From positions 1-34,732 of IMG/VR virus record IMGVR_UViG_3300029319_000206: a stretch of 34,732 nt of DNA; one strand, 5' to 3'. Position 1 is the first letter of the stretch. The number at the start of each line of letters is the position of its first letter. The position numbers were made by a program, and so were the translations under genes. This stretch comes from a virus (taxonomy: Duplodnaviria > Caudoviricetes). Below, one piece after another: positions 14,601 through 34,732 of the stretch. Below the pieces are notes generated by a model. The model did no database searches. It was given only the letters and a program-made list of their open reading frames with translations, and was not told where the DNA came from.

Positions 14601-17600
14601 CAACAGCAGGAGGAACTTTAGCAGCAGGAACTGAATTATTTGCAATAAAGGATGGTGGTAATAAAGATAGATTTAAGGTTGCAAAAACAAAACCTGATGC
14701 ATTAAAAGGAATAGCATTATCATTTACGGGTTCAGGATCTGGTAATAGTCATGAATTTGAAATGTCTAAGAAAAATGAAAAGGCTCTTATATCTCTTGAC
14801 GGTGTAATACAATCTCCAATCGCATTTACTCCAATAACTACAAATCTTGAATTTAATATTAATGATAGTGTAACAACATTCAGTGTTACTGGTATTTCTT
14901 CAGTTACCACAGGTGATACAATTAAAATAAATGAAGAATACATGGAGATCACAAATGTTGGTTTAGGAACTACATCTGTTGGTCCAATAACTGAAAGTGG
15001 AGATGTTAAAATTCTTGAGGTTGTAAGAGGATATATTGGTTCTGCAGCAACTAATCATAGTGCTAGTGATATAGCTAGACTTTATTCAGGAAGTTATAAC
15101 ATAGTTGATAGTACAATTCATTTTACTGAAGCACCAAGAGGAACCAATATATCACAAAGAACTCCATCAAATCTAACTCCAGTGAGATCAACATTTAATG
15201 GTAGAGTTTATTTGAGACAAGATTATAGTACTAATCAAATATTTGATGATATATCAGATAGTTTTAATGGTATAGATCAATCGTATAGAGTAAAAGTTGG
15301 AGGAGCAGATACAGTTGGAATTAATACTGGAAGTAGTATTTTATTATTAAATGGAATATTCCAAACACCTACAACCTTTAATAACTTAGGTAACAATTAT
15401 AATTTTGCAACAATTGGTGCTGGAACATCTACTAATGTAGTATTCACAGGAATTACATCTTCTAATGGTAGTTTGATTGTAAGTGATACTGATGTAAATC
15501 AAAATCAACTACCTAGAGGTGGTGTAATTGTATCATTAGGATCAACTGGTGGATTGGGTGTTGCGAATCTTGTTGGTGCAAAGGTGAAAGCAACCATTAA
15601 TGGTAGTGGTTCAATTATAGGACTTACTGGTATTGGAACAACTGGTAGTTCATATGGCATAAGCACCGCATCATATAATAATACAACAGGACAATTAGAA
15701 ATTACCACATCATCCAACCATGATTTTGGTGATATTAATGAGTTTGTAAGACTTGATGGTTTGAACTTTACACCTTCATTAACAATAGCAGATGATTTAT
15801 CATTTGGTATTACAGGAATATTGTCTGCAACAACATTCACCGTAAGTATAGGAGCTAGCACACAGGCGCATACTTATGTTGGTTCTGGAACTGCATTTGA
15901 ATATTTAAATGATCTATCATTTGGTTCTGGTTATAGAAATCCAGTTTCTGTTGCTGTTACAGATTTATCTGGAAATGGAGCAAGTGCTGATATTTCAGCA
16001 GAGGTTGTTTCTAATACTCACGTTTTTGTAAGTGCAGTAGCAAATGCTGTTTCAGTTACTGGAGGTCTTTCTCTTACTCCTACAAATGCCACATATGATC
16101 CAGCAACAGGAGATTTAGTAATTACAAAAGCATCTCACGGTTTAACAACAAGTGATACAGTTGGTCTTGCTACAAATGGATTTGTATTTAGATGTGCTCA
16201 AGATAATTTTTCAACCGATCATTCTTATCCCCGTTCTGGTCCAACACCAAGTTCAGGTGGAGGAGATCCTGCACATGGCAAAACTTTAGCAATTACTTCA
16301 AAAACAACAAATACATTCACAGTTAACGTAGGTATTACAAATACAGGCACAGGTGGTGCTCTTAAATTTACTATCAATAATGCAGGTACTGGTTATATTA
16401 AACCAAGAATATTTGTTGAATCACCATCATATTCTAATCTTCCAATAATAGGAGTATCAAGGAGAGGAATTGGTTCTACGACAGATACAGGTAATGGAGT
16501 TACTCTAACTTTAGACGTAGGTGCTGGAGCTACAACAGTTGGATTAGGTTCAACATCAAATATTATATCTAATTTTGAATTAGATAATCAAGGTTATAAT
16601 TTTAAAGTAGGTGATGTGTTTAAACCTGTTGGATTAGTGACTGATAGATTTTTAAACACTTCACAATTAATAAATGATTTTGAATTGACAGTATTAGATG
16701 TCTTTAGAGATCAATATTCTTCATGGAATTTTGGACAATTTGATTTTATTGACTCAATTAAGGAACTTCAAGATGGCATTAGAAAAAGATTCCCAATAAT
16801 TTACAATGGAAATTTACTTAGTTTTGAAACTGATGAATTAAATGTATCATCTGCTTTAATTGATTTAAAAAGTCTTCTTCTTATATTTGTTAATGGTGTT
16901 GTGCAAGATCCTGGTGAAGCATATAGTTTTGATGGAGGCACGTCTTTTGAATTTTCACAGGCACCTGATCCAACAGATGTAATTGACATATTCTTTTATA
17001 AAGGAACTGAAGGAGTTGATGCTGTGCAAGTTTCAGCAGGAGCATCAGTTGCACCTACCATAAAAGTTGGAGACTCTGTTCAATTAATTAAAAACTCAGG
17101 TGTTACAACCACTCAATCACCAAGAGTTATATATTCTATCAGTAGTTCAGATGAGGTTGAAACAAATTTATATAATGGTATTGGTATTGATGAAGTAAAC
17201 TTCAAACCTTTACATTGGACAAAACAAAAAAGAGATAAAAAAATTAATGGTGAATTTGTATTCAAATCAAGAGACTCAATTGAATCTTTAGTTTATCCAA
17301 CTGCAAAAATTATATCTGATGTTGGTGTGGGTGATACTATATTGTATCTTGATAATGCAACTTTATTCAATTATGAAGAAGATTTTGGATCTATAGATAT
17401 TGGTACAGTTGGTGGTTTAATAGTCGAATCAACCGATTTAGTTGCTGCTGGACTAACAGCAGTAGTTTCTGCTGCTGGTACAATTCAATCATTAGATATT
17501 GTTAATGCTGGTAATGGTTTCGTAGGTTCTGCTGTTACTGTTTCAATATCAGCACCAGCAACTAATAATTATTATTCAATTACTACATCAACCTCACCAC

Positions 17601-18289
17601 CTTCTGGTCTTACAACAGCAACAGCAACAGTTTCTATATCAAATGGTCGCCTAAATACAGTTACTATTACCAATCCTGGTTTTGGATATACTCAAACTAA
17701 ACCTCCTCAAGTATTAGCACCATTCCCAACTATAAAGAAAGAGGATGTTGATTTAATATCAACTATTGAGGGATTTGATGGTGACATCATAGGTGTGGGA
17801 GTGACAGATGGTATAAATGGAAATCCCCTAGCACTTAAATTTACATTAAATGCTAATTTAGGAGCAGGTTCTGGAAATCCATCTGCAACTCTAACTGATT
17901 TGAAGGTTGGATATCCAATCTATGTCTTTGACACTCAGGTTGGACATGGTGTAACCTCTGTTTACAGTGATGGTGCAGTTGTTGCCACAGGTACAACTTG
18001 TGTTGATAACATTTACTTTGTAGATGCATTTAATGAAGGAGTCGGTATTATAACATGTAATATCATGACTGGAGTAAATACTACTGGTATAGATACTTCA
18101 GTGGGATTGGGAACTGCAATTGGTGGATTTTCATGGGGTCGATTAACCAATTTCAATAGATCCTCAAATCCTATATCAATAGGTGTTACAGGTAATATTC
18201 ATTACTCAGGCATCTCATCTTATCCAACAATTCAAAGAAGAGATTTTGGACTTAGAGACTCTGGTGCTTTAAGAAAGGATCTTGGCTAG
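5606..18289 (+). CDS. gp7: Giant baseplate wedge initiator (T4 gp7-like), 4227 aa, with many inserted repeat domains
   Basis: Lies between gp6 and gp8. gp7-type N-terminal block (IPEFL...IKNSKSLYQSKGTEESFRILFNILY) and a second core block (DNNYYQNLSYTVKS...LLHTSGLKNF, ~12890-13010); repeated beta modules and a YHYH-like segment. Confidence 0.85.
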   Translation: MITTGIDKRVKVQQIIENQIPEFLLSESPKAVDFLKQYYISQEYQGGSIDLTDNLDQYIKLDNLTPEVVVGETTLTSGITTVATTVNVSSTKGFPKEYGLFKINEEIITYTGLTTNTFTGCVRGFSGITTYHATNQPNELIFTDSTATNHETDATVINLSALFLKEFYKKTKSTLTPGLENVDFVDNLDVSNFIKNSKSLYQSKGTEESFRILFNILYNETPKVIDLEEYLIKPSSAEYIRREIVLAEAIVGDPTKLLGQTIIKSTDINTRAPIAASVSEIQPFTRRGKTYYKLGLFVGFNDRDLIEGTFTIPGITKSITDVSIGSSVITVDSTVGFAATGFVVSGINTNIYYGSKSINQFFDCENIISPISTTDDIRADVFYYGYEDADLTKKVELRLTGVLSEFEPTSDIRLLTEGEKITVKNVGEKITDPLLNKSRKQIFANSWIYNTSSRFQVSSISGNNFVLFTRDIDKSSIKVGDAVQILFRNEENIAGTGVVKSVSPSTRTIDLDPLSSVSGGSFSVDPNRDYDIRRSIKTASSSTVDIEFGNNVLTADTTNVYNQLDENMYVASNSLPSYTITASIPQSIIPNATGNIDLQGYNPSTLKYSVISFSSNVNFITGDEITYTAQGTLIPGLIEGSYFVEVLSAKNQIRLYKSRSFIPIGDFEEFESLPLNTGTHTFSLIGTVNQKIGAQRILREFPLKPNIVSSSNEKTLPGTTGLLINGVEILNYKSNDKIYFGPLESIKVLNGGSNYDVLVPPTFEVSSPSSGGTRALVQPVVVGEVTDIQIDPQDFDIQKVLSVTIEGGNGSGAVFEPILSKRKREITFDGRLISQSGGIDNVNETLTFLSDHHISSGLPLIYDKNGNNPLGVSTVGNDGTSVVGLGTTTLVDSATYYPLVVNANTIKLFQNINDYNSGINTVGFTTFNKDGVHKFKLFKEENTLKDIKILEGGSNYQNRQLFVKPIGINTSNHTINFNNHGFSTGDKIVYSNNVGLGSTQPQQITGLSTYTGITTTSILYNVLAVDDNSFRITNAGLGGTSLDNYDRLNYIKFSDQGTGFQVFKYPDIKLNLKYELANTNVGVITATPIVRGSIEELYLYESGSGYGSDILNLEKPVSITKKFGKDAELKPIISNGKISYVEIQSKGQDYQTAPDLQVVGIGTGIGAKLRAVVENGKIVNVIILEGGLQYDENTTSILVKPPGSELKVDASIRSLFTNSFDRYGSEALVESQEKLKYTLVGYSTQIGNDAFGDDGIEHSPIIGWAYDGNPIYGPYGYSDPSDENSAIRRLDCGYELNPSNIIDRPTTFSSGFFIDDYVFTNVGDLDIHNGRYGRTPEYPKGTYAYFVGITSISLEPKFPYFIGNTYRSNPVIDNYKLTQKDFNIEDSNLIRNTYPYKVSDQFADNDFIVESNEISKQTSVVESTTFGSINSIQIINDGDNYRVSNSAEFDNTGTEGGGLSVSVDSIKGKTINSIDTTINSYDNVVFFKNEIGEISASISTAPSLNNGDRVVISGLSTTLLPDLNGSFIIGIETARSIVYQEIPNSTTTGIVTDIYVSKIPSNVSVGSSISIGTEKLLVLNTFDQNNILRVRRGTSAGVHTVGTIINLIPSIFSLDNTGFGVTDINSKLNDQVFFNPHESIGVGTVVGLGSTAFSTLGNVKKVVSTPLQSIRLPNHPFVTNQRVTLTKPSAGYALTVSDDDGVTTFKIPESGDTQDVFIINKSENFVGIVTQVGLTTNTSGLSFVGDTKVGSSSFEYSLKSNFEQITGKLQRIHAQVSLSTAHNLSNNEIIDLNVIPNQSVGIGTSTSVNVRYDEFNNILLINTKTCSSSGITSSTNNINIASHDFESGDKIYYSSSSPSEGLSDKNSYFVFKVDDNNFKLGETISDVVNDPIRIIELSSKGNNHEFSLINPRIEVIKNNNLVFGVGHSSLENFEFKLFHDQNFKNEFVSTGTTNTFQVSGVGTVGVTSTATVTLSFYEDNPNTLYYNVQKSGYISTSDTIDVINPSSIQYTDSVYGGEFEVFDIIGLGSTIFNISLPEVPEKISYNASETSKLSYSTKSRNVSGPINEVKINYGGIGYKSLPSFVSVASTQGVNASLIPDSTTINRINSIRILNPGFEYSSDNTLKPEAFVSPVISIIDSNTITDVEVVSGGKNYTSEPDLVIVNPDTGLQDTTGSVQATINGSSISNASIIVPSRGLQSVTHKIFALNNSNGATIKTVEFNSATGIVTCTLVTPILGFSTAPFSVGEEIFVEGIQQYTHPSITEGDGFNSEDNGFNFFKVTSMVNNNPATVEFDLSTFTSNAGIAKTNQNSFAQIISKDDYPVFAVTQKIFNFVVGEKISAFIRDSFTPVELSISESTDEFIKIVEDQPGAFDLIAGQKIRGANSGNIATINQISENKGQFKVDYSLKENRGWRNNTGKLNQDYQVLPDNNYYQNLSYTVKSSITFEDLINPVNRLLHTSGLKNFADVGIQSSTSAGVTTSTFLDTVALDIIDQKRVDTINNFDFALDIDVVNNKSKFLKLQNTKLSPYIECRTNRVLEIDDISPLFSNTSTVLAKLLDIPINTSFARYLIQTRNPFNKNIQLSDLVLFRDENDVFTAEQTKVHNTSSELGTLKFELDSNDLVNLVFIPDDPDNNDYDLKIFQNTFNTDLSGIGTQSLGFINLIGSNKSVSTASTSEIISSNTGNTDAFFVSAEVKNPTTSETNFVELYATHDGTNTFLSEFYSDSEQAFTSNFIGSFTAGISTGAFRIKFENDELNEIEVRTSVIGIGTTAAGIGTYRFKSQGQSDGTEKTVRFESKFANVSTSSTISSYQLQEITSFKSIIRVSSGSTSALHQVMVAHNETDTHTTQYPFLSIGSTSGIGTFSSSLKGTDLNFNFHPDPEFTGGTNNVQIQVLNKLFHKDIDLINPPLDLQYGTVTESLSLAQYDAINGSRANKSSFILQSNSQPIFQKNFNPSDSTVLDLATGQFTIIDHFFETGEKIIYSPGSTFDGVSVAGITTAGGTLAAGTELFAIKDGGNKDRFKVAKTKPDALKGIALSFTGSGSGNSHEFEMSKKNEKALISLDGVIQSPIAFTPITTNLEFNINDSVTTFSVTGISSVTTGDTIKINEEYMEITNVGLGTTSVGPITESGDVKILEVVRGYIGSAATNHSASDIARLYSGSYNIVDSTIHFTEAPRGTNISQRTPSNLTPVRSTFNGRVYLRQDYSTNQIFDDISDSFNGIDQSYRVKVGGADTVGINTGSSILLLNGIFQTPTTFNNLGNNYNFATIGAGTSTNVVFTGITSSNGSLIVSDTDVNQNQLPRGGVIVSLGSTGGLGVANLVGAKVKATINGSGSIIGLTGIGTTGSSYGISTASYNNTTGQLEITTSSNHDFGDINEFVRLDGLNFTPSLTIADDLSFGITGILSATTFTVSIGASTQAHTYVGSGTAFEYLNDLSFGSGYRNPVSVAVTDLSGNGASADISAEVVSNTHVFVSAVANAVSVTGGLSLTPTNATYDPATGDLVITKASHGLTTSDTVGLATNGFVFRCAQDNFSTDHSYPRSGPTPSSGGGDPAHGKTLAITSKTTNTFTVNVGITNTGTGGALKFTINNAGTGYIKPRIFVESPSYSNLPIIGVSRRGIGSTTDTGNGVTLTLDVGAGATTVGLGSTSNIISNFELDNQGYNFKVGDVFKPVGLVTDRFLNTSQLINDFELTVLDVFRDQYSSWNFGQFDFIDSIKELQDGIRKRFPIIYNGNLLSFETDELNVSSALIDLKSLLLIFVNGVVQDPGEAYSFDGGTSFEFSQAPDPTDVIDIFFYKGTEGVDAVQVSAGASVAPTIKVGDSVQLIKNSGVTTTQSPRVIYSISSSDEVETNLYNGIGIDEVNFKPLHWTKQKRDKKINGEFVFKSRDSIESLVYPTAKIISDVGVGDTILYLDNATLFNYEEDFGSIDIGTVGGLIVESTDLVAAGLTAVVSAAGTIQSLDIVNAGNGFVGSAVTVSISAPATNNYYSITTSTSPPSGLTTATATVSISNGRLNTVTITNPGFGYTQTKPPQVLAPFPTIKKEDVDLISTIEGFDGDIIGVGVTDGINGNPLALKFTLNANLGAGSGNPSATLTDLKVGYPIYVFDTQVGHGVTSVYSDGAVVATGTTCVDNIYFVDAFNEGVGIITCNIMTGVNTTGIDTSVGLGTAIGGFSWGRLTNFNRSSNPISIGVTGNIHYSGISSYPTIQRRDFGLRDSGALRKDLG

Positions 18290-19878: not shown

Positions 19879-22800
19879 ATGGCTCAAAAAACAAATTTAA
19901 ATATTAGTCCTTACTATGATGATTATGATAAAAGTGATCAATTTTATAAAGTCTTATTTAAACCTGGTTTTCCAGTTCAAGCTAGAGAATTAAGCACTTT
20001 ACAATCAATTCTTCAAAATCAAGTTGAATCATTTGGAACTCACATGTTCAAAGAGGGTTCGATGGTCATACCTGGTGGTATAGCATATGATCAAGAATAT
20101 TACTCATTGAAAATAGAGGAAGAGCATTTAGGAACACCTGTTACTTTATATCTTAATGAACTTATAGGATTAAGACTTAAAGGTGAAATAACTGGTAACA
20201 TATTATCAATTGATAATTTTGAGTATCCAGAAGATAATGCAGATCTCACTAATCTCACAATATATGTAAAATTTTTAGAGTCAGGTGATGATAATTCAAC
20301 AAATGGTTTAGCAGAAGGTGAAAATTTAATAGTACAAGAAACATTTTCATATGGAAATACCATCGTAAATGCAGGAGAGTCTGTATTAAATTTGATAGAG
20401 AGTGATGATGCTTTTAGAGTTGGATCTGCTGTTGGTATATCAGAAGGTGTTTATTTTATTAGGGGTAATTTTATTCAGGTCAATAGTGAAAAAATTGTTT
20501 TAGATCCATATGATAATGAACCTTCATACCGAGTTGGACTGAATATTGATGAACAATTAACATCAGCAAAAGATGATGATTCATTATATGATAATGCTAG
20601 AGGATTTTCAAATTATGCTGCACCAGGTGCTGATAGATTAAAAATAAAAACAACTTTAACTAAAAAGGGACTAACTGATTTTAATGATACAAATTTTGTT
20701 GAATTAATTAGATTAGATGAAGGAACAATAAAACTCACAGCAGATAAAACTGATTACAACTTAATAAAAGATTATTTTGCAAAAAGAACATTTGAAGAAT
20801 CTGGTAATTATAGTTTAGATGAATTTGAAGTTGATGTTTTTAATACTCTTAATGATGGTATTACAGGAGATGGTGTTTATAGATCAAATGAGATAACTCA
20901 GCAAGGTAATATACCTGATGATGATTTATTGTGTGTAAAAGTATCATCTGGTAAAGCATACGTCAAAGGTTATGATATTCAACTTGAATCATCTCAACTT
21001 ATTGATAATGTTAAACCAAGAGATAAGCAAGTAGTTGATTCAGCTTTAGTTCCATATCAAATGGGAACTGTTTTTAAAGTTAATAATGTATTTGGTGTAC
21101 CAGCTCCAAATATTAATGATGATAGTGTTTTTGTAGAATTAACTAATAAAAGAACAGCATCAAATAGTGCAAAAACAGGGGATTTGATAGGAAGAGCAAG
21201 AGTATATTCATTTGCTGTCTCTGATGCATCATATTTTGACGATTCAACACAGTGGGATCTGCATTTATTTGATGTTCAAATATTTACAAAAATTATATTA
21301 AATCAAGTTGTTACTAACTCTGAGGTGCCAAATACATCCTTTGTAAGGGGTGTTAGCAGTGGTGCTACAGGATATGTTGCTATCGTTTCAAGTGGAGGTA
21401 ACACTCTTCATCTAAGTGAAATTACAGGTCAGTTTATGGCAGGTGAACAATTAATCATAAATGAAGACACTTCTTTTGTTAGATCAATAAGAACGGTTAA
21501 AACTTTTGGTATTCAAGATGTAAAGTCAGTTTATCAAGGCACCTCTTCCTTAGCTGGGTATGCTACTGATTTTGTTGCTGATACTGTTCTTCAGAGAGTA
21601 ATAGGACCTTCTTTCAGTAATTCTGATCAAATTACTATTACTGGTGCAGGTGCGACAACAAACGGTGCTTATAATTTTGTTGGAGTTAGCACTGGAACAA
21701 TATTAAGATATACTCCATCAGGAGAAACAGTTGAAAGATTTAATCGTATAGAAACAGTATCATCAGATGGATTAAGTGTTACTCTTTCTGCAGTTCCAAG
21801 TGTAACAGGTATTACAACAGATATATGTAATGGAGCTTTAAATACTACTAAAATAAGCACCACTTTTGCTTTTGGTGTGCCGAACATTAATTTAGAAGAT
21901 AGTAGAGGATTATATACAGAGATAGATAATAAAAATGTTTCAGATATTGATTTATCGACTGCTACATTACTAGTCGGAAAAAATATTACTGCTGAAAGCA
22001 CCGATGGTTCTGGTGTTCTAACTTTTGATTTATCTGCAAGTGGTATATCAAGTGCATTTTATGAAAGTTTTGATGAGGAAAGATATTCAATTCATTATAG
22101 TGATGGTGCGATTGAACAATTAACTTCAGATCAATTTGTTTTAAGTTCTGATGGGCAAACAGTTACTATCAATGGATTAAGAACTAGTCAATCTAATGTT
22201 GTTGTAAGTTCAACTCTTAAAAAAGAATCTTTAAAGAGTAAACAGAAAAATTATATAAGAAGTCAAAAAATTACTGTTGAAAAAACAGCAGTTGGAATTA
22301 ATACCGCTTTGACTGGAATGGAGATAAGCAAAAATTATGGTCTTCGTGTTGAAGATAAGGAAATATCATTAAACGTGCCAGATGCAGTAAAAGTCATAGG
22401 TGTTTATGAATCACTCAATACATTATCACCTACTTTAGATGTATTTACTTTCCCATCTGGATTATCATTGAATACGGAATCAATATTAGGGGAAAAAATA
22501 GTTGGTTCTGATACTGGAGCAGTTGCACAAATTGTTGGTAGAAATTCAGCAACTGAAGTTGAGATATCAGTTTTATCATCAAACGCATTTAGTATTGGTG
22601 AAATAATTACTTTTGAAGAATCAAATATTACAACCACCCTACAAGATATAACATTTGGCAATAATTTAAATATTACAAATAGATATAAATTAGATAAAGG
22701 TCAGAGAGAAGAGTTTTATGACTATTCTAGAATCGTAAGAAGAAAAGATTTTCCACCAGCATCTAGAAAACTTTTAATAGTTTACGATAGATATGATGTT

Positions 22801-25800
22801 CCATCTAGTGATAGAGGTGATTTCTATACAGTTGCTTCCTACCCTGAAGAGAGATTTGGAAAAGATATTCCACATTTAAAAAATGGATTAAGATCTACTG
22901 ATACAATTGATTTCAGACCAAGAGTTGGTGCATATGGTGGAACAGGATCTCCGTTTGCATTTGCAAATAGAAGTTTTAACAATTCTTCTAATCCAACTTC
23001 TATTGTAACTCCTAATGAGAGTTCAATTATTGGATATAATTTTTATCTCCCAAGAATTGACAAAGTAGTCTTAGATTCTAATGGAGATATAGTTATAATA
23101 ACAGGTGAATCTTCAACTAACCCAACTCCCATATCTGTTCTTGATAATGCTATGGTGTTAGCAACTATAGAATTACCTGCATATCTTTATGATCCAGATG
23201 ATGCAAAAGTTATCATAGAAGATAATGTAAGATTTACTATGAAAGACATAAGTAAGTTAGAAGATAGAATTGAAAATTTAGAAGTTACATCATCTCTAAG
23301 TCTATTAGAATTAGATACAAAAACACTTCAGATCCAAGATGCTGATGGTTTATCAAGATTTAAAACTGGATTTTTTGTAGATGATTTTAAAAATACTAAT
23401 TTAATTAATATTGACGACGTTGATTGCAACGTCACTGTTGATACTGACAAACAAGAATTAGAATCTACAACTAATTTTTGGTCATTAAAACCACAACTAG
23501 CATTAGACCCATCTATTAATATCGCTACTGCTGATTTTTCTACAGATTTACCACTTTTAGATTCAAATTGTAAAAAAACTGGTGATTTAATAACTTTAGA
23601 TTATGAAGAAGTATCTTGGATAGGTAATCCACTTGCTTCAAGAGTAGAAAATGTTAACCCATTTAATTTAACTGGGTTTATTGGAACCGTAAAATTAGAT
23701 CCTGCGAATGATACATGGGTAAGAAATATAGAGGTATCTGGTGGTAGTAAAACAATAACAGGTAAAGTTGCTAAAACTTACGTTGAGAAAAAACAAATTA
23801 GTTCAAAACCTGATGATCATATAAGGTCTCGTAACGTTGGATTTAGTGCAGACGGACTTAGACCAGTTACAAGATTTTATCCATTTTTTGATTATACAAG
23901 TGGGATTAATTTAATTCCCAAATTATTAGAAATATCTATGGTAAATGGTATATTTACCAAAGGTGAAACAGTTGAGGCACTAAAAGATGGTCAAAGAGTT
24001 GCTATATTTAGAATATCTCAACCAGATCATAAAGCTGGAGATATTAATGCACCATCTTTAACATTTAATGCAAACCCATATGACACATCACTTAGTTTAG
24101 GAAGTGTATATTCTGCCTCTTCAACTGTATTGAATATTGATATAAATGCTCTTGCCGATGAAGCAAAAGGTAGTTTTTATGGTTATATTCCTACAACTGG
24201 CACAATTACACTTCTAGGAAAAAGTAGTAATGCACAAGCAACAGTCACTAATGTTAGATTGGTTGCTGATACTTATGGAGATTTATATGGTTCATTCTTC
24301 TTTGAAGATCCTCTTAAAATACCTGCTCCAAGTTTAAGATTTAAAGTTGGAACTAGTACTTTTAAATTAACATCTGAATCCACTATAAACACTGCCGAAG
24401 CAGAAGGAAGTATATTGTTATCAGAGGCTGCTACTGAATATGTCACAAATGGAAAGGTCAATACAATTCAATCTACAAATATAACTGTTCGAGTTCCACC
24501 TCCTGTATTTTATAAAAAATCTGGTGGCAGTAAGTATAAGATAGCCAAAAAGAGTTTGATGGCTAATTTTGATTCCAGATACTCTAGGTTTAAAGGTGGA
24601 TATGTGAAGACCACAGGACCTAAAAAAGTCCAAGCTATGCAGAAAAAGAAGAGGCAACAGAAGAAGAAGAAGAAATCTCCGTACAACTATTATAGTGGTA
24701 AACAGTATCAAGGAATTGACCCTCTATCACAAACATTTAAAGTTGACGAGGATGGTGCATTTTTAACTTCAGTTGATTTATTCTTTGCAAGAAAAGATCC
24801 AAATGAAAATATTTCAGTTGAAATAAGAACAACCGAATTAGGAACACCTACAACTCAATTAGTTCAAGATTTTGCTCGTGTTGTGATAAATCCTGTTGAT
24901 GTTAATGTTTCAAGTAATGGAGAAGTTGCAACTAGAGTAACATTCCCATCACCGATATATCTAGAACCAGATACAGAGTATGCATTAGTTCTTGGAGTAC
25001 AACAATCAATTGAATATGAGGTATGGATATCTCGTATGGGTGATCGAACTGTAAATACACAAAGTTTACCTGATGCGGAATCGGTTATCGTAACTCGTCA
25101 ATATCTTGGTGGTAGTTTATTCAAATCACAAAATGGTTCAGTATGGACTGCTAGCCAATATGAAGATTTAAAATTCCAACTTTATAAAGCATCATTTATT
25201 GAAGATGAAGGAACTGTATTTTTCTACAATTCCAAGATGGAAACTGGAACTGGTAATATCGAAAGATTATTGCCTAATGCAATTAAAACATTACCAAGAA
25301 AATTAAAAGTTGGTATTACAACTACAACTGACACTGACGGATTACTCACAAATGGTGTTAAAGTAAGTGATGCAACAACAGCAACTGCAATTCAAGGATA
25401 TATTGAGAATGTGGGTGGTCCTATATCCACACTTGCGGTAACAAATGCAGGACAAGGATTTGCAGCAAGTCAAACATATACTGCAGTTCCTTTGTATAAT
25501 ATCACTGGTAACGGAAGTGGAATGACTGCTACTATTCAAACAGATAGTTCTGGTAAAGTATCATCCGCTGCGATTTCATCTAATACAGGTGGTGCAGGAT
25601 ATGTTATTGGTGATGTTCTTGGTATTACAACAAGTAATGTAATTAAAGGTTCAGATGCATTAATCAGTGTGACAGCAACTAGTGGTAAGAGTACACTCTA
25701 TCTTAAAAATGTACAAGGTGAAGAATTTACAACTGGTCAACCATTAGTTGTAACAGATGGTGGTTCTCAAGTATCATTAGCAACTACGACCATACTTTCA

Positions 25801-27153
25801 TCTGCGATTTATGATGATAAGTATGAAGGAAATGTTATTGAAGTAAATCATTTTAATCATGGTATGCAAGCTGACAATAACTTTGTAACTCTTGCTGATA
25901 TAGAACCAGACACAACTTCAGTATTGCTAACAGATTCTCTTGCAGTCGATGATCAAGTAATATCAGTTGCAAGCACATCAGAATTTGCAACATTTGCTGG
26001 AATATCAACAACTCAGGGATTTGTTAAGATTAATAGTGAAATTATTTACTATGATAGTATTGGTACAAACCAACTTGGAATTGGAACTAGAGGTGTAGAT
26101 GGAACAATACCAAGAACACATAATACAGGTGATCGTTCGTTAAAATATGAGTTAAATGGTTTAGATTTAAGTAAAATAAACACTACTCATGACATGGCTT
26201 TGATGCCTGTAGGTGTTAATGCACTTAAAAATATTGACCGTTATTATTTGAGTATTAATAGGGGTTCTTCCTCTTCAGGTGATTCTCAAGTTAGTTTTGT
26301 CGATGAATCCAATGTTGGTGGGGATAATATATTTGCATCACAAAACTATCAGTTTGATAAAGTGATTCCACAATTCAATACTTTATTACCAAATTCCAAT
26401 GTAGGAATGTATAATCAAATCAGAACTGTTTCTGGAACTAGTGCTGGTGGAAATGAGGTTTCCTTTATTGATCAAGGATTTGAAAGTGTCACTATTAATA
26501 ATGAAAATACATTATCAACACCTAGACTTTTATGTTCTGAAATAAATGAAATTAATCGATTAACAGATTTGCCTTTGAATCGATCATTTACCTTTTCATG
26601 TATTATGGCTTCATCAAGTCCAAATGTGTCTCCAGTTATTGACATACAAAATGGTGTTATAATTTATGAAAGATCAAGATTAAATCGACCAATACTAGAT
26701 TATGTGAAGGATGGTAGATCAGAACAAGCATCTGGTGATCCTCATTCTTCAGTTTATATAAGTAATCAAATTAATCTTAAAAATCCAGCGACATCTCTCA
26801 AGGTCATTGTTGCTGCATATAGAGATGCATCTGCTGACTTTAGAGCATTTTATCAGTTAGTTAGAGCAGATGGATCTGAAACTGAATTAGCATATAATGC
26901 ATTTCCTGGTTTCGATAATTTGGAAGATACAGATGGTGATGGTTTTGGTGATAAAGTTGTTGATGCATCAAAAAATTCTGGAAGACCAGATGCGTTTGTT
27001 TCTCCAAGTTTAGTTGACGAATTTAAAGAATATCAATTTAGTGTTGATAATTTAGAAGAGTTCATTGGATATAAAATTAAAATTGTGTTTAGTGGAACTA
27101 ATGAAGCAAAGGCACCTAGACTTAAAGATTTACGAACAATCGCACTCGCATGA
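19879..27153 (+). CDS. vrlC: Large virion structural protein, VrlC-like / DUF4815 family
   Basis: N-terminal NLNISPYYDDYD...KVLFKPGFPVQARELSTLQSILQNQ, APGADRLKI, AKRTFEESGNY, YLPRIDK, RFKTGFFVDDF, ENVNPF, DPLSQTF and GSLFKSQNGSVWTASQYEDLKF are characteristic of this family; follows gp8 as in T4-like cyanophages. Confidence 0.85.
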   Translation: MAQKTNLNISPYYDDYDKSDQFYKVLFKPGFPVQARELSTLQSILQNQVESFGTHMFKEGSMVIPGGIAYDQEYYSLKIEEEHLGTPVTLYLNELIGLRLKGEITGNILSIDNFEYPEDNADLTNLTIYVKFLESGDDNSTNGLAEGENLIVQETFSYGNTIVNAGESVLNLIESDDAFRVGSAVGISEGVYFIRGNFIQVNSEKIVLDPYDNEPSYRVGLNIDEQLTSAKDDDSLYDNARGFSNYAAPGADRLKIKTTLTKKGLTDFNDTNFVELIRLDEGTIKLTADKTDYNLIKDYFAKRTFEESGNYSLDEFEVDVFNTLNDGITGDGVYRSNEITQQGNIPDDDLLCVKVSSGKAYVKGYDIQLESSQLIDNVKPRDKQVVDSALVPYQMGTVFKVNNVFGVPAPNINDDSVFVELTNKRTASNSAKTGDLIGRARVYSFAVSDASYFDDSTQWDLHLFDVQIFTKIILNQVVTNSEVPNTSFVRGVSSGATGYVAIVSSGGNTLHLSEITGQFMAGEQLIINEDTSFVRSIRTVKTFGIQDVKSVYQGTSSLAGYATDFVADTVLQRVIGPSFSNSDQITITGAGATTNGAYNFVGVSTGTILRYTPSGETVERFNRIETVSSDGLSVTLSAVPSVTGITTDICNGALNTTKISTTFAFGVPNINLEDSRGLYTEIDNKNVSDIDLSTATLLVGKNITAESTDGSGVLTFDLSASGISSAFYESFDEERYSIHYSDGAIEQLTSDQFVLSSDGQTVTINGLRTSQSNVVVSSTLKKESLKSKQKNYIRSQKITVEKTAVGINTALTGMEISKNYGLRVEDKEISLNVPDAVKVIGVYESLNTLSPTLDVFTFPSGLSLNTESILGEKIVGSDTGAVAQIVGRNSATEVEISVLSSNAFSIGEIITFEESNITTTLQDITFGNNLNITNRYKLDKGQREEFYDYSRIVRRKDFPPASRKLLIVYDRYDVPSSDRGDFYTVASYPEERFGKDIPHLKNGLRSTDTIDFRPRVGAYGGTGSPFAFANRSFNNSSNPTSIVTPNESSIIGYNFYLPRIDKVVLDSNGDIVIITGESSTNPTPISVLDNAMVLATIELPAYLYDPDDAKVIIEDNVRFTMKDISKLEDRIENLEVTSSLSLLELDTKTLQIQDADGLSRFKTGFFVDDFKNTNLINIDDVDCNVTVDTDKQELESTTNFWSLKPQLALDPSINIATADFSTDLPLLDSNCKKTGDLITLDYEEVSWIGNPLASRVENVNPFNLTGFIGTVKLDPANDTWVRNIEVSGGSKTITGKVAKTYVEKKQISSKPDDHIRSRNVGFSADGLRPVTRFYPFFDYTSGINLIPKLLEISMVNGIFTKGETVEALKDGQRVAIFRISQPDHKAGDINAPSLTFNANPYDTSLSLGSVYSASSTVLNIDINALADEAKGSFYGYIPTTGTITLLGKSSNAQATVTNVRLVADTYGDLYGSFFFEDPLKIPAPSLRFKVGTSTFKLTSESTINTAEAEGSILLSEAATEYVTNGKVNTIQSTNITVRVPPPVFYKKSGGSKYKIAKKSLMANFDSRYSRFKGGYVKTTGPKKVQAMQKKKRQQKKKKKSPYNYYSGKQYQGIDPLSQTFKVDEDGAFLTSVDLFFARKDPNENISVEIRTTELGTPTTQLVQDFARVVINPVDVNVSSNGEVATRVTFPSPIYLEPDTEYALVLGVQQSIEYEVWISRMGDRTVNTQSLPDAESVIVTRQYLGGSLFKSQNGSVWTASQYEDLKFQLYKASFIEDEGTVFFYNSKMETGTGNIERLLPNAIKTLPRKLKVGITTTTDTDGLLTNGVKVSDATTATAIQGYIENVGGPISTLAVTNAGQGFAASQTYTAVPLYNITGNGSGMTATIQTDSSGKVSSAAISSNTGGAGYVIGDVLGITTSNVIKGSDALISVTATSGKSTLYLKNVQGEEFTTGQPLVVTDGGSQVSLATTTILSSAIYDDKYEGNVIEVNHFNHGMQADNNFVTLADIEPDTTSVLLTDSLAVDDQVISVASTSEFATFAGISTTQGFVKINSEIIYYDSIGTNQLGIGTRGVDGTIPRTHNTGDRSLKYELNGLDLSKINTTHDMALMPVGVNALKNIDRYYLSINRGSSSSGDSQVSFVDESNVGGDNIFASQNYQFDKVIPQFNTLLPNSNVGMYNQIRTVSGTSAGGNEVSFIDQGFESVTINNENTLSTPRLLCSEINEINRLTDLPLNRSFTFSCIMASSSPNVSPVIDIQNGVIIYERSRLNRPILDYVKDGRSEQASGDPHSSVYISNQINLKNPATSLKVIVAAYRDASADFRAFYQLVRADGSETELAYNAFPGFDNLEDTDGDGFGDKVVDASKNSGRPDAFVSPSLVDEFKEYQFSVDNLEEFIGYKIKIVFSGTNEAKAPRLKDLRTIALA

Positions 27154-27359: not shown

Positions 27360-27367
27360 TATAAATA
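27360..27367 (+). promoter_or_regulatory. T4-type late promoter
   Basis: Perfect TATAAATA in the intergenic gap, 27 nt before ATG 27395. Confidence 0.85.
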
Positions 27368-30665: not shown

Positions 30666-32306
30666 ATGGCATTAAATCCCTTTTTTCTACAAGGATCTCA
30701 AAGTGAACAAAGGCTTGTTCAAAATTTAATTAATGAACAACTTCAAATTTATGGTGTTGAAGTAACTTATATACCAAGAAAATTTGTAAGAAAACAAACA
30801 ATAATTAAAGAAGTTCAATCATCAGCTTTTGATGATAATTTTTTATTAGAAGCGTATGTAAATACCTATGAAGGTTATGGTGGTCAAGGAGACATCATGA
30901 CTAAATTTGGTGTGAGTTTAAGAGATGAACTTACACTCACCATATCAAGAGAAAGATTTGAAGATTTTATATCACCTTTCCTAGAAGCAGATGATGATTA
31001 TGAGTTAGCATCAAGACCTCGTGAAGGAGATATTATATTTTTTCCACTTGGAGCAAGATTATTTGAAGTTAAGTTTGTTGAACATGAAGAACCTTTCTAT
31101 CAACTAGGAAAAAATTACGTATATCAACTTAAATGTGAACTCTTTGAATATGAGGATGAAGTTATTGATACTGGTATTGATATAATTGATTCTCAACTTG
31201 AAGATATTGGATATATTTCAACATTACAGTTAATTGGAACTGGTGTAACTGCAACTGCAAACGCACAACTCAGCACAATCAATAAAGGATATATTCGTGA
31301 AATTGTTTTGAATAATGATGGTAGTGGATACACGAGCACTCCAAACGTTGCAATTTCTACTGCTCCTTTTGGTGTAGGTAATGTTAATGCCACTGCTGTT
31401 GCTATTACAACTACAAGAGCTGGTCTATTCTCTATTGATAGAATTTTATTAACTAATGCAGGTGCTGGTTATACAACACCACCATTAGTCACTATTACAG
31501 GTGGAGGTGGAGTGGGTGCAGCTGCAACTGCTGCGGTTGAACAATCAGACTTTGGTATTGTTGACTTTGTTATTACTAACAATGGTGTAGGTTATGCAGC
31601 AACTCCTACTGTAACTATTACTGGTTTAAGTACATCACCAGCATCTGCGGAGGTAAATCTATTAGCAGATAATACAATATCTGATGTTTTAATTAAAAAT
31701 GCAGGTATTGGATATACTGTTGCTCCAACTGTAACAATTGCAAATCCATCACTCATTAGTGGTGTTGGCAATTTTAAAAGAGGTGAAATTATTAGAGGAC
31801 TTTCATCTGGTATTGAAGCAAGAGTTAAAGAATGGGATACTGATACTAAAATTCTTAAAATATCAAATGTTGGTATTGGAACTACTCAAGCAGCATTTAT
31901 TCCTGGTGAAACTATTCAAGCGACTGAATCAACATTCTTTAATGTTGGTTTGACTACTGTTGCAACAATTGGTGTTACAACGACAATATTAACGGGTATT
32001 AATACTTCAAATATCACATTAAATCAAGATATAAATCAAGTAAAATTTGGTCAAACTATTGTTGTGGGAACTGGGGTAACTGTTACAAGTATTGGTGCTG
32101 GTACAATCACCATAAGTTCTCCTACGTTAAATACTACTGGTGTTACTACAGTAGTTTCTTTCGGATCTACAGTATTTTCAAATTATTCACTTGATTTCTT
32201 TAGTGAAGAAAATCAAGACACGACCTTTGAATCAAACGATATACTCGAAACTGAAGCTGACGATATACTCGATTTTTCAGAAGGTAATCCATTCGGTACA
32301 TTCTAA
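30666..32306 (+). CDS. gp14: Neck protein / head closure (T4 gp14-like) with ~330-aa repeat insertion
   Basis: EQRLVQNLINEQLQIYG..V.YIPR, SRPREGDIIFFP, FEVKFVEHEEPFYQLGKNYVYQLKCELFEY, C-terminal DFSEGNPFG. Confidence 0.93.
   Translation: MALNPFFLQGSQSEQRLVQNLINEQLQIYGVEVTYIPRKFVRKQTIIKEVQSSAFDDNFLLEAYVNTYEGYGGQGDIMTKFGVSLRDELTLTISRERFEDFISPFLEADDDYELASRPREGDIIFFPLGARLFEVKFVEHEEPFYQLGKNYVYQLKCELFEYEDEVIDTGIDIIDSQLEDIGYISTLQLIGTGVTATANAQLSTINKGYIREIVLNNDGSGYTSTPNVAISTAPFGVGNVNATAVAITTTRAGLFSIDRILLTNAGAGYTTPPLVTITGGGGVGAAATAAVEQSDFGIVDFVITNNGVGYAATPTVTITGLSTSPASAEVNLLADNTISDVLIKNAGIGYTVAPTVTIANPSLISGVGNFKRGEIIRGLSSGIEARVKEWDTDTKILKISNVGIGTTQAAFIPGETIQATESTFFNVGLTTVATIGVTTTILTGINTSNITLNQDINQVKFGQTIVVGTGVTVTSIGAGTITISSPTLNTTGVTTVVSFGSTVFSNYSLDFFSEENQDTTFESNDILETEADDILDFSEGNPFGTF
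31293..31745 (+). repeat. Four tandem ~40-45-aa protein-level repeats (I-x-x-[IVF]-x-[ILV]-x-N-x-G-x-GY-x-x-x-P-x-V-x-I) inside gp14
   Basis: IREIVLNNDGSGYTSTPNVAI; IDRILLTNAGAGYTTPPLVTI; IVDFVITNNGVGYAATPTVTI; ISDVLIKNAGIGYTVAPTVTI. Confidence 0.85.
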
Positions 32307-33349
32307 TGTTAGGACAATATTACTATCACGAAATACTCAGAAAAACCATAATTGCCTTTGGTACTATTTTTAATGACATTCATATACGTCATCGAGATGG
32401 TGCAGGAAAAGAAACAAGTGACATGAGAGTGCCACTTGCTTATGGTCCTATGCAAAAATTCCTAGCAAGATTAGAACAACAACCAGATTTAAATCGTGCT
32501 GTTCAGATTACATTACCACGTATGTCATTTGAAACAACTAATATTGCATATGATGCAACGAGAAAGGGTGGAATAACTCAAACATTTAAAGCAACTGATG
32601 GGAATAAACTAAGAAAGGTTTTCATGCCAGTTCCATATAATCTTGGATTTGAATTAAACATACTTGTTAAATTAAACGATGATGCGTTACAGATAATAGA
32701 ACAGATACTACCATATTTTCAACCATCATTTAATGTCACTGTAGATCTAGTAAATGTGATTGGTGAGAAGAGAGATGTTCCAATCGTATTAGATAATATA
32801 TCATTTCAAGATGATTATGAAGGAGATTTTGCAACAAGAAGAGCACTTATATACACTTTAAACTTTACTGCTAAAACTTATCTCTTCGGTCCTGTATCTG
32901 ATTCTAGTGAGGGTCTTATTAAGAAAGTTCAGGTTGATTATCATGCATCTGTTGATACTGAGAATGCAAGAAGAGAGTTAAGGTACACTGCAACTCCTCA
33001 AGCACTGAAGGATTATAATGATGATAATACTGCTGAATTAAAGACAGATTTGAGTAAAACTAAGACAAGATTTGATGTCACTTCAACTTCTGCTTTATCT
33101 GTTGGTATGAGAATTATTATAGATAAAGAAATAATGAAGATCAAAGAAATCGTTGATGCGAATACAATTACAGTATTCAGAGGATATCAAAGCACTGCTG
33201 CAACACACGTTGCACCAGCATCAATTGATGTATTAACAGCAGCTGACGATTTACTTGTTGAACCTGATGATGATTTTGGATTTAATGGCAATCTTGAAGT
33301 ATTTAATGATTCAAGATCATATAGTCCAACACAACAAAAAGATATCTAA
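32306..33349 (+). CDS. gp15: Tail sheath stabiliser / tail terminator (T4 gp15-like) with an extra C-terminal module
   Basis: YYYHEILRKTIIAFGTIFNDI, VPLAYGP.QKFLARL, LPRMSFE, PVPYNL.FEL, QIIEQILPYFQP, DDYEGDF..RR, DDDFGF. Confidence 0.95.
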   Translation: MLGQYYYHEILRKTIIAFGTIFNDIHIRHRDGAGKETSDMRVPLAYGPMQKFLARLEQQPDLNRAVQITLPRMSFETTNIAYDATRKGGITQTFKATDGNKLRKVFMPVPYNLGFELNILVKLNDDALQIIEQILPYFQPSFNVTVDLVNVIGEKRDVPIVLDNISFQDDYEGDFATRRALIYTLNFTAKTYLFGPVSDSSEGLIKKVQVDYHASVDTENARRELRYTATPQALKDYNDDNTAELKTDLSKTKTRFDVTSTSALSVGMRIIIDKEIMKIKEIVDANTITVFRGYQSTAATHVAPASIDVLTAADDLLVEPDDDFGFNGNLEVFNDSRSYSPTQQKDI

Positions 33350-33780
33350 TGAATACCATGACTAACTATGATTCTATTGATAAAGCGTTAAACACAAGTA
33401 GTGCGATTGATGTTAAATCAGTCAGCACACCTAAAAAAGTAAAAAAAACTGAAACTGATGATATCAAGAAAGATTATGATTATACTCGTGCTAATCTTTA
33501 TTCTTTAATTGAAAAAGGTCAGGAATCATTAAATGGTGTTTTAGAAGTTGCAGGTGAAACCGCAAGTCCAAGAGCATATGAAGTTGCAGGTCAAATTATA
33601 AAATCAGTTGCAGATACAACTGATAAATTAATGGAACTTCAGAAAAAAGTTAAAGAAGTAGACGAGGATAAAAAGCAAACAACTAATAATGTAACTAATA
33701 ACGCACTCTTTGTAGGTTCAACATCTGAACTATCAAAGATGTTAAAGCAAGGAATACTAAATAATAAAGAGGATTCTTAA
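33349..33780 (+). CDS. gp16: Terminase small subunit (T4 gp16-like); start may be ATG 33358
   Basis: DYDYTRANLYSLIEKG, SPRAYEVAGQIIK, NNALFVGSTSELSKML; follows gp15. Confidence 0.93.
   Translation: MNTMTNYDSIDKALNTSSAIDVKSVSTPKKVKKTETDDIKKDYDYTRANLYSLIEKGQESLNGVLEVAGETASPRAYEVAGQIIKSVADTTDKLMELQKKVKEVDEDKKQTTNNVTNNALFVGSTSELSKMLKQGILNNKEDS
33757..33763 (+). promoter_or_regulatory. Probable late promoter variant for the ORF after gp16
   Basis: CTAAATA, 22 nt before ATG 33786; spacing matches the other late promoters here (18-27 nt). Confidence 0.5.
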
Positions 33781-33785
33781 TTTTA

Positions 33786-34732
33786 ATGAGTAATTCAGTT
33801 ACTATTGAAGATTCAAAAGGAGAAACTTTTGCAGAAGTTATCGATGTTATTGGTGTGTCTGAGGTCAAAAAAGCATTTCAACAATCTGTAAAAGAAGGTT
33901 CACTTCATAAGTGGTTCAAAGGTTCAAAATCCAAAGATGGCAAACCTGGTTGGGTGAATGTCGTCACTGGAGGAACTTGTGCTAGTGACAAACCTGGTGA
34001 AGGTACACCTAAATGTGTATCATCATCAAAGAGAGCAAGTATGACAAAAGCAGAAAGACTCTCTGCTGCTCGTAGGAAAAAGAAAGCAGATCCTGGTCAA
34101 CAAGCAAAAACTGGTGCTGCAAAACCAACCTATGTCTCAACTGATAAACCAAAAAAGAAAATGAGTGAAGAGATGAAAAGAGATGAGTATGGTGATCCAA
34201 TTGGTGGTCCTAAAATTTCAAAAAAAGAGATGAAAAAAAATCTTATGAAAAACGTACCTGACGAACAACATACAACTACAACAAGTGAATCATATATTGA
34301 TTTACCATTGCATGTTGAGATTCCAAAAAGTGACGGAGACTTCAAATTAGGTCTTATGTTCCGTGAGAGTTTAGACATTGACAAGGGTATGCTCTTTATA
34401 TTTGAAGAAGTTGGTCAACATTCATTCCATATGAGAAATACTCGTATTCCACTTGATATTGCATTTATAAAAGAAGACGGAACTATCGAAAGTATAAAAG
34501 AATTAACACCATATAGTAGTTTACCTGTATATTCAGATGGTGAAGTATTATTTGCAATTGAAGCAAATCGTGGTTGGTTTACAGAAAACAATGTAGAAGT
34601 CGGAGATGAGATAGTTTTAGGAGAAGCAAAAGATAAGAAAGGTAAGGGTAGTGGATCTAAAGATGCTTGCTATCATAAAGTTAAGTCAAGATATTCAGTT
34701 TGGCCAAGTGCATATGCATCAGGTGCATTAGT
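33786..34732 (+). CDS. 3'-truncated modular protein (>315 aa): basic Cys/Trp module(s), DUF5872-like, plus a DUF192 domain; not in ORF track
   Basis: Hand translation, open from ATG 33786 to the window end. GLMFRESL...GMLFIF...FHMRNTRIPLDIAFI...AIEANRGWF...VEVGD (~34290-34620) is a clear DUF192 signature, flanked by GSLHKWFK...PKCV...AARRKK and KDACYHKVKSRYSVWPSAYASGAL. Confidence 0.85.
   Translation, partial: MSNSVTIEDSKGETFAEVIDVIGVSEVKKAFQQSVKEGSLHKWFKGSKSKDGKPGWVNVVTGGTCASDKPGEGTPKCVSSSKRASMTKAERLSAARRKKKADPGQQAKTGAAKPTYVSTDKPKKKMSEEMKRDEYGDPIGGPKISKKEMKKNLMKNVPDEQHTTTTSESYIDLPLHVEIPKSDGDFKLGLMFRESLDIDKGMLFIFEEVGQHSFHMRNTRIPLDIAFIKEDGTIESIKELTPYSSLPVYSDGEVLFAIEANRGWFTENNVEVGDEIVLGEAKDKKGKGSGSKDACYHKVKSRYSVWPSAYASGAL

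Follow-up and report, generated by a model that had tools for sequence, protein, structure and literature searches.

What kind of product is made from a late phage gene that reads as a string of unrelated small blocks? The question is raised by an open reading frame (ORF) at positions 33786..34732 (+) of IMG/VR record IMGVR_UViG_3300029319_000206. This 34,732-nucleotide fragment of a T4-like phage genome (hereafter the window) is the sole contig of its assembly. The ORF, a module chain of the T4-GC119 family, starts seven bases past the stop of the small terminase gene gp16. An earlier sequence-only reading proposed that its product is packaged in the capsid and divided by the head protease into several small proteins, one of them a captured DUF192 domain. 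We consider it probable (about 0.62) that the ORF encodes a head-cargo polyprotein, packed into the prohead and cut there, as a variant of the T4 internal proteins. The family shuffles its modules and carries a glutamate motif at their joints; in addition, the gene has a late position, relatives are associated with virions, and the DUF192 domain is optional and folds independently. The ORF had been taken as complete, but its reading frame is still open at the window end and its 3' end is missing. The window encodes 315 amino acids (aa) of it, compared with 481-615 aa in close relatives (86-96% identical), where gp17 follows.

Five dissimilar blocks and four borders ending in Glu lie exactly where the sequence-only reading had placed them (33896, 34169, 34289 and 34625; all features are on the + strand). 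Module a (33786..33896) is an acidic 37-aa leader with a net charge of -3; relatives have it within their chains or as a gene of its own. It contains an extra V-S-E at aa 26 and closes with V-K-E (aa 37, 33888..33896), the joint to module b. Module b (33897..34169) comprises 91 aa with a net charge of +15, two Cys and two Trp. It has no Pfam match and falls into unnamed viral clusters in the ESM Atlas, with a DUF5872 lead on 26% of one cluster. Joint b/c reads M-S-E (aa 128, 34161..34169). Module c (34170..34289), a 40-aa optional peptide with a net charge of 0, is missing from the chain of phage S-SM2 and ends in T-S-E (aa 168, 34281..34289), a swap point with no hydrophobic-x-Glu match. Module d (34290..34625; Pfam span 34311-34613) is an acidic, optional DUF192 domain (PF02643) with a net charge of -13 and no export leader, closed by L-G-E at joint d/e (aa 280, 34617..34625). 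Module e (34626..34732) is a basic Cys/Trp module with a net charge of +6 that is cut by the window end and extends about 17 residues further. A Pfam scan of the ORF and 15 related or neighboring proteins gave only DUF192, DUF6321 and DUF3008 above the cut-off, and NCBIfam on the chain gave one sub-threshold DUF192-like match.

Module borders were located by a motif-blind search, in which exact 8-residue seeds were extended pairwise among 81 non-redundant proteins (the ORF and 80 relatives) and abrupt ends of likeness were scored. Swap points in the ORF were found at aa 34-36, 121-131, 162-169 and 270-282, adjoining the proposed cuts at 37, 128, 168 and 280, with a weak one (two pair counts only) at aa 147-153. 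Family members gain, lose and reorder modules; the chain has at least five modules here and about eight in close relatives, and is split into separate genes at some loci. Among an independent set of 150 cluster representatives holding module b, some of which are fragments, module a is present in 10, module c in 21, DUF192 in 11 and module e in 78. On population contigs, module c is joined to module e without DUF192 in two of four runs, in frame via M-G-E and I-T-E when read by hand, and module b is joined to module e in two of four. A tally of 101 architectures among 106 proteins has qualitative value only, as partial ORFs and split labels inflate it.

The swap points coincide with a short motif. 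To quantify this, 12-residue swap windows were taken from 106 family ORFs and compared with shuffling within those windows, with 406 other ORFs (fibres, neck, tail) from the same loci as controls. Two gp23 ORFs are included in the 106 for the 496-window and architecture counts, and are excluded from the counts of collapsed windows, DNA words and the first motif position (P3). The motif [LIVM]-x-E occurs in 261 of 496 distinct swap windows, compared with 115 +/- 8.5 after shuffling. In the control ORFs it occurs in 89 of 1284 (shuffled 127), an imperfect control given that these swap points are partly edges of divergence. When similar windows were collapsed, the motif was found in 117/205 (shuffled 48.5), a level reached by 0/500 shuffles, and in 35/471 collapsed control windows (44.7). 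Stricter forms behave likewise, with [LIV]-x-E in 90/205 (42.0), [LI]-x-E in 67/205 (29.0) and L-x-E in 33/205 (17.6), none of them reached by any of the 500 shuffles. Met, Ile, Leu and Val are all enriched at P3, Arg less so. Altered motifs show no excess in the collapsed windows, with 27 for [LIVM]-x-D (shuffled 27.1) and 39 for adjacent [LIVM]-E (53.2). The sequence-only reading had named as support modules that are shuffled or lost with breakpoints at hydrophobic-x-E; relatives do shuffle and lose modules, swap points fall at all four borders, and the motif is enriched over both shuffles and control genes.

V-K-E at joint a/b is the best-supported candidate cut position. Of 106 distinct contexts drawn from the 150 representatives, 104 have Glu immediately ahead of module b and 80 have the full [LIVM]-x-E there. 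Of 60 unrelated neighbors upstream of module b, 43 end in this motif. Where module b comes first in the protein, a leader of 3-9 residues still stands ahead of it; [LIVM]-x-E closes 14 of the 16 distinct leaders, in three cases only via the start Met. The remaining two (5 proteins) are T4-type targeting leaders that end at the same Glu. On the far side of module b, the first Glu has Leu, Ile, Val or Met at P3 in 94/125 distinct contexts. The opposite pattern, a fixed architecture with no boundary Glu, is not what the homologues display.

This motif resembles the site of the T4 head protease. T4 gp21 cuts after L/I-X-E and needs the Glu (PMC9026906); the [LIV]-X-E given by the sequence-only reading is broader than in this review. 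A relative 92% identical in the ORF encodes gp21 (PF03420), gp22 and gp23. T4 gp23 has 521 aa and its mature form in the PDB 456 aa. At the position matching the T4 cut, gp23 of the relatives has an exact L-x-E in 34/43 distinct contexts, the other nine being one residue off by eye (62/80 loci parsed); one relative's site reads M-Y-E.

Targeting leaders provide a second link to the head. In the leader of T4 internal proteins, positions 4 and 7 target the protein, and positions 8 and 10 govern cutting, which is blocked by Asp at 10 (PMC9026906). We searched with a pattern that combined these positions with the T4 leader and leaders observed in the loci. Targeting-type leaders were found at the N-terminus of 7/150 relatives, in five of them directly before module b and ending at the Glu equivalent to V-K-E. 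They also start genes beside the chain family, including the P-SSM4 cytidyltransferase (L083:785), whose cluster is virion-detected in cyanophages. In the present copy, the last ten residues of module a form a partial capsid-targeting leader, with Phe at 4 and Glu at 10 but Ser at 7. A recurring linker, [SYF][DNS]WR-x-x-hydrophobic, is flanked by two Glu motifs and was found in 45/67 complete family ORFs and 0/284 controls; in close relatives it lies within the part missing from the window (for example L046:7200-7300). Either module a or this WR-containing linker may be the packaging signal of the chain; for the linker, a docking role is an alternative candidate.

Two further arrangements were observed around these leaders. 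Downstream of the chain gene in L051, L056, L059, L062 and L064-L066 are runs of 45-140-aa ORFs, each with a targeting-type leader at its start; these arrays are candidates for internal proteins encoded singly, next to the chain. In L143:11146-11700 (-; G001), L081:2880-3308 and L136:633-1367, a small gene with a targeting-type leader continues into a near copy of the sequence located behind the presumed cut in that genome's own gp23.

The DUF192 module illustrates how cargo may be acquired. The domain is complete, as the sequence-only reading had it, with PF02643 matching aa 176-276 at 94.3 bits (cut-off 27) over model positions 2-94 of 96. Among cultured cyanophages, only S-SM2, Bellamy and SynMITS9220M01 (5/7 matching records) have DUF192 in this chain. 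When predicted alone, it folds with a predicted local distance difference test (pLDDT) score of 95 onto the cellular structures 3PJY and 3M7A (Z 18.8 and 17.2, identity 36% and 31%, root-mean-square deviation (rmsd) 1.8 A over 112 and 110 residues). In this model, strands or strand ends hold the three inner motifs, and the closing L-G-E lies in a low-confidence tail. The motif follows DUF192 in 69/71 phage copies compared with 7/76 cellular ones, and is present in 28/28 distinct contexts for joint d/e. Cellular copies typically have a hydrophobic leader (61/76) and end within 12 residues of the domain (71/76); the copy here is instead embedded in a chain.

A quick tree of 93 rows groups all 26 phage copies with three marine genome-bin contigs (support 99). 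These contigs (L223, L224, L225), from archaeal and gammaproteobacterial bins, carry phage-type DUF192 with neighboring chain modules, namely module e right behind it in two and a leader-like module in the third; they are therefore probably mis-binned phage DNA. A single capture of DUF192 followed by shuffling fits the data. The proposal that DUF192 was captured as a cassette agrees with its optional presence, single phage clade, independent fold, absent cellular export leader and flanking site behind. As for the donor, none of the best 80 of 373 genome loci is cyanobacterial, a result limited to a scan with two short patterns and the quick tree.

Fold searches with DUF192 returned no function. 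The only other strong match is chain EH of PDB 6yxx, an assembly intermediate of the Trypanosoma brucei mitoribosome (Z 11.3, rmsd 2.3 A, 108 aligned), which is a lead toward possible RNA or ribosome binding. The domain was also observed in other settings: at the end of a 245-aa, leader-bearing protein of the small-gene kind just described (L136, L139, L141); as a fold within BFVD A0A218MMM0, a viral protein of 947 aa with the name cytidyltransferase-like; and as two different modules in a 997-aa chain (P0151), either a real duplication or a chimeric contig. A fusion of gp23 propeptide, small protein and DUF192 located after gp22 and before gp17 (L130:4439-5317) is possibly a chimeric assembly, joined through the segment they have in common, and was not counted as evidence.

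Relatives of the chain are associated with virions. T4-GC119 is listed as a structural protein of S-SM1 virions with 13 counts (Table S8, PMC3037559), where the column order was read from the pattern of entries. The S-SM1 protein has a diverged module b and module e in common with the ORF. In S-SCSM1, for which a virion proteome exists (PMC9602691), the homologue is annotated 'virion protein'. Both relatives are without DUF192, and the phage of this window is uncultured. The sequence-only reading had named absence from virions as grounds for rejection; on this point the record is divided, with relatives present in S-SM1 and, by annotation, in S-SCSM1, and missing from the Syn9 virions of Table S8 (PMC3037559).

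On the basis of these findings, the chain would be made late and drawn into the prohead core. A gp21-type protease would cut the exposed joints, releasing basic pieces of 30-90 residues and a folded DUF192, whose fold would protect its inner motifs. The probability given above is a joint figure for packaging of this copy and cutting at V-K-E, M-S-E and L-G-E. Cutting at T-S-E is doubtful, as the sequence-only reading had itself cautioned, and Thr is not enriched at P3 (27 vs 29.9); module c and DUF192 may thus stay joined in this copy. The pieces would then remain associated with the DNA and be delivered into the next host, where protection of that DNA or effects on host proteins are possible roles. 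Their ejection and action on DNA or host defences, by analogy with T4 IPI, is possible but falls short of even odds. With a single packaging signal for the whole chain, a phage would gain or drop cargo by splicing it in or out at a position flanked by protease sites. More tentatively, this would amount to plug-in delivery in marine T4-like cyanophages: a packaged chain would be cut into injected mini-effectors, any gene spliced between protease sites would become cargo, and DUF192 would be a captured cell-envelope protein that lost its export leader and gained a site behind it.

Several observations weigh against a packaged and cut chain. Met is the most enriched residue at P3 (79 vs 17.8), whereas gp23 sites use Leu, and only one of the four joints here, L-G-E, fits L/I-x-E. 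The motif is missing from about half of the swap windows (235/496), and the additional swap point at aa 291 falls within module e and has no Glu. The DUF192 here holds three internal motifs, and phage copies show no depletion, with 3.6 each compared with 1.9 in cellular copies; moreover, a site precedes DUF192 in only 41/71 phage copies (cellular, 2/76). This copy begins with no canonical targeting leader, as do all but seven of the 150 relatives, and the end of its 37-aa leader matches only in part. Virion data are also of limited weight. In addition to the Syn9 result, scaffold gp22 was detected in S-SM1, so that detection does not prove retained cargo, and the S-SM1 samples were run through a 10% gel (PMC3037559), which would tend to lose pieces of 4-10 kDa. 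On these two counts, the S-SM1 data distinguish neither a cut chain from an intact one nor cargo from a remnant. The published search of the S-SM1 spectra set no enzyme specificity. Table S8 holds counts only, and no peptide-level data were found in the S-SCSM1 supplement or the S-SCSM2R text. When modules a-e were modeled together (L002, 96% identical; 27-row alignment), the mean pLDDT was 36 and the predicted template modeling score 0.32; the model shows no integrated fold and is too poor to count.

Some of these points would suit a protein that is packed in the head and stays mostly whole apart from a leader, with its joints as relics of fused small genes that had cleavable leaders. Such a flexible multi-module protein is unlikely. 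In its favor, relatives have targeting-type and very short leaders that end at one and the same Glu, some loci hold the chain as several genes, three of four joints here depart from the strict T4 motif, and the S-SM1 protein was detected after a 10% gel. Relic sites should nevertheless decay, yet Glu is kept before module b almost without exception and Asp is no substitute; a site behind DUF192 is close to universal in phage copies and rare in cellular ones. Furthermore, a protease that recognizes so short a motif would hardly leave motifs exposed in the prohead uncut, as is established for the T4 core proteins (PMC9026906).

Cleavage at many sites is known for those core proteins (PMC9026906, PMC7411985), and the chain could itself be a core or assembly protein like T4 gp67 and gp68, cut so as to leave the head and with no role for its pieces in the next host. 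The presence of gp22 in the S-SM1 list and an acidic DUF192 with inner motifs would agree with this. We regard it as improbable, given that the modules are strongly basic with invariant Cys and Trp, unlike acidic gp22, and that content is optional, with gene lengths from 276 to 2985 nucleotides and no copy in S-PM2 (PMC3037559). It is very improbable that the joints mark hot spots of recombination or internal starts of translation (M-x-E) in an outer virion or cytoplasmic protein that no head protease cuts. The prominence of Met at P3 and one 9-base word that makes up 31/261 sites point that way, but enrichment persists when Met is left out, the 261 sites use 137 different 9-base words, the four joints of the ORF have no DNA repeat in common, and mosaic fibre and neck genes of the same loci are without such a motif. 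A packaged polyprotein cut at its joints continues to be our preferred reading.

The genomic setting is that of T4-like late genes. The ORF is preceded by gp16 (33349..33780, +; PF11053, phrog_445) and by the neck gene gp14 and tail-sheath stabiliser gene gp15 (30666..33349, +; PF11649, PF16724); in L046, gp17 and gp18 lie downstream of the chain gene. Between 27000 and the window end, a T4-type late-promoter pattern matches only once, at 27360-27367, upstream of small ORFs and a fibre-like gene that precede the neck genes. Two very long ORFs follow a baseplate-like gene (5606-18289, 4227 aa; 19879-27153, 2424 aa). In RNA run X15 the stretch is covered by contigs alone, which does not count as expression evidence. 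Of 308 phage records matching the ORF, 300 are named Synechococcus, Prochlorococcus or Cyanophage. The ORF belongs to T4-GC119 through gene 109 of S-SM2 (59% over aa 35-315), and the same label is on matches in P-SSM4, S-SSM7 and S-SM1. Present in 15/16 cyanomyovirus genomes, this family is still 'hypothetical' (Sullivan et al. 2010, PMC3037559). The description of the ORF as unannotated is correct as to function, but the family is already catalogued as T4-GC119 and in PHROGs as 3477, 727 and 12753.

If the chain is cut as predicted, true polyproteins are produced by one of the ocean's commonest phage groups, and standard tryptic proteomics has overlooked dozens of small virion peptides. An exact N-terminus is predicted at every joint. 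For DUF192, a widespread family with solved structures in which no function has been found, the chain provides a second setting for testing. Should plug-in delivery be true as well, the chains would hold a large, so far untapped reservoir of day-zero peptides for host takeover or anti-defence in Prochlorococcus and Synechococcus.

Among known systems, the closest by descent is T4-GC119 itself, of which the ORF is a member, often located between gp16 and gp17 and listed as structural (PMC3037559). Passages of that paper assign it to a mobile cassette, with its product called hypothetical, and do not describe modules, joints or processing. In the literature searched, mostly outside subscription papers, no account was found of this family as a protease-cut chain or of a DUF192 function. 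Polyvalent proteins (Iyer et al. 2017, PMC5512222) are likewise mosaic and multi-domain in a virion-gene context, and are proposed to be packaged and delivered; the chain agrees with them in placing several shuffled domains in one polypeptide in such a context. They differ in carrying enzymes (metallopeptidase, ART, nucleases), whole or self-cut, whereas the chain has modules of 30-110 aa with head-protease-type joints. None of their effector domains (MPTase, ART, ParB-like, BECR and others) appeared in our Pfam scan, which did not include the profiles of Iyer et al., and 'cyanophage' does not occur in the main text of PMC5512222. Cellular DUF192 proteins (COG1430, UPF0127; PDB 3PJY, 3M7A) have the family and fold of module d, but stand alone behind a hydrophobic leader, unlike the leaderless, embedded phage copy.

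The T4 head itself provides the nearest functional parallels. Like the chain, gp22, gp67 and gp68 carry many gp21-type motifs along one polypeptide, and in T4 they are cut into several fragments. These core proteins are acidic, essential and mostly expelled, whereas the chain modules are basic, optional and individually conserved. With T4 IPI, IPII, IPIII and Alt, the chain has in common a late T4-like origin, a Glu motif with a hydrophobic P3 and small basic mature products (predicted here), in addition to virion presence in relatives and targeting-type leaders in some relatives and neighboring genes. This copy differs in having no canonical 10-19-residue N-terminal capsid targeting sequence, in a family where Met and Val are common at P3 and processing is predicted only. 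T4 internal proteins yield one mature protein per gene by removal of one short propeptide, whereas the chain strings many shuffled modules together in a single gene.
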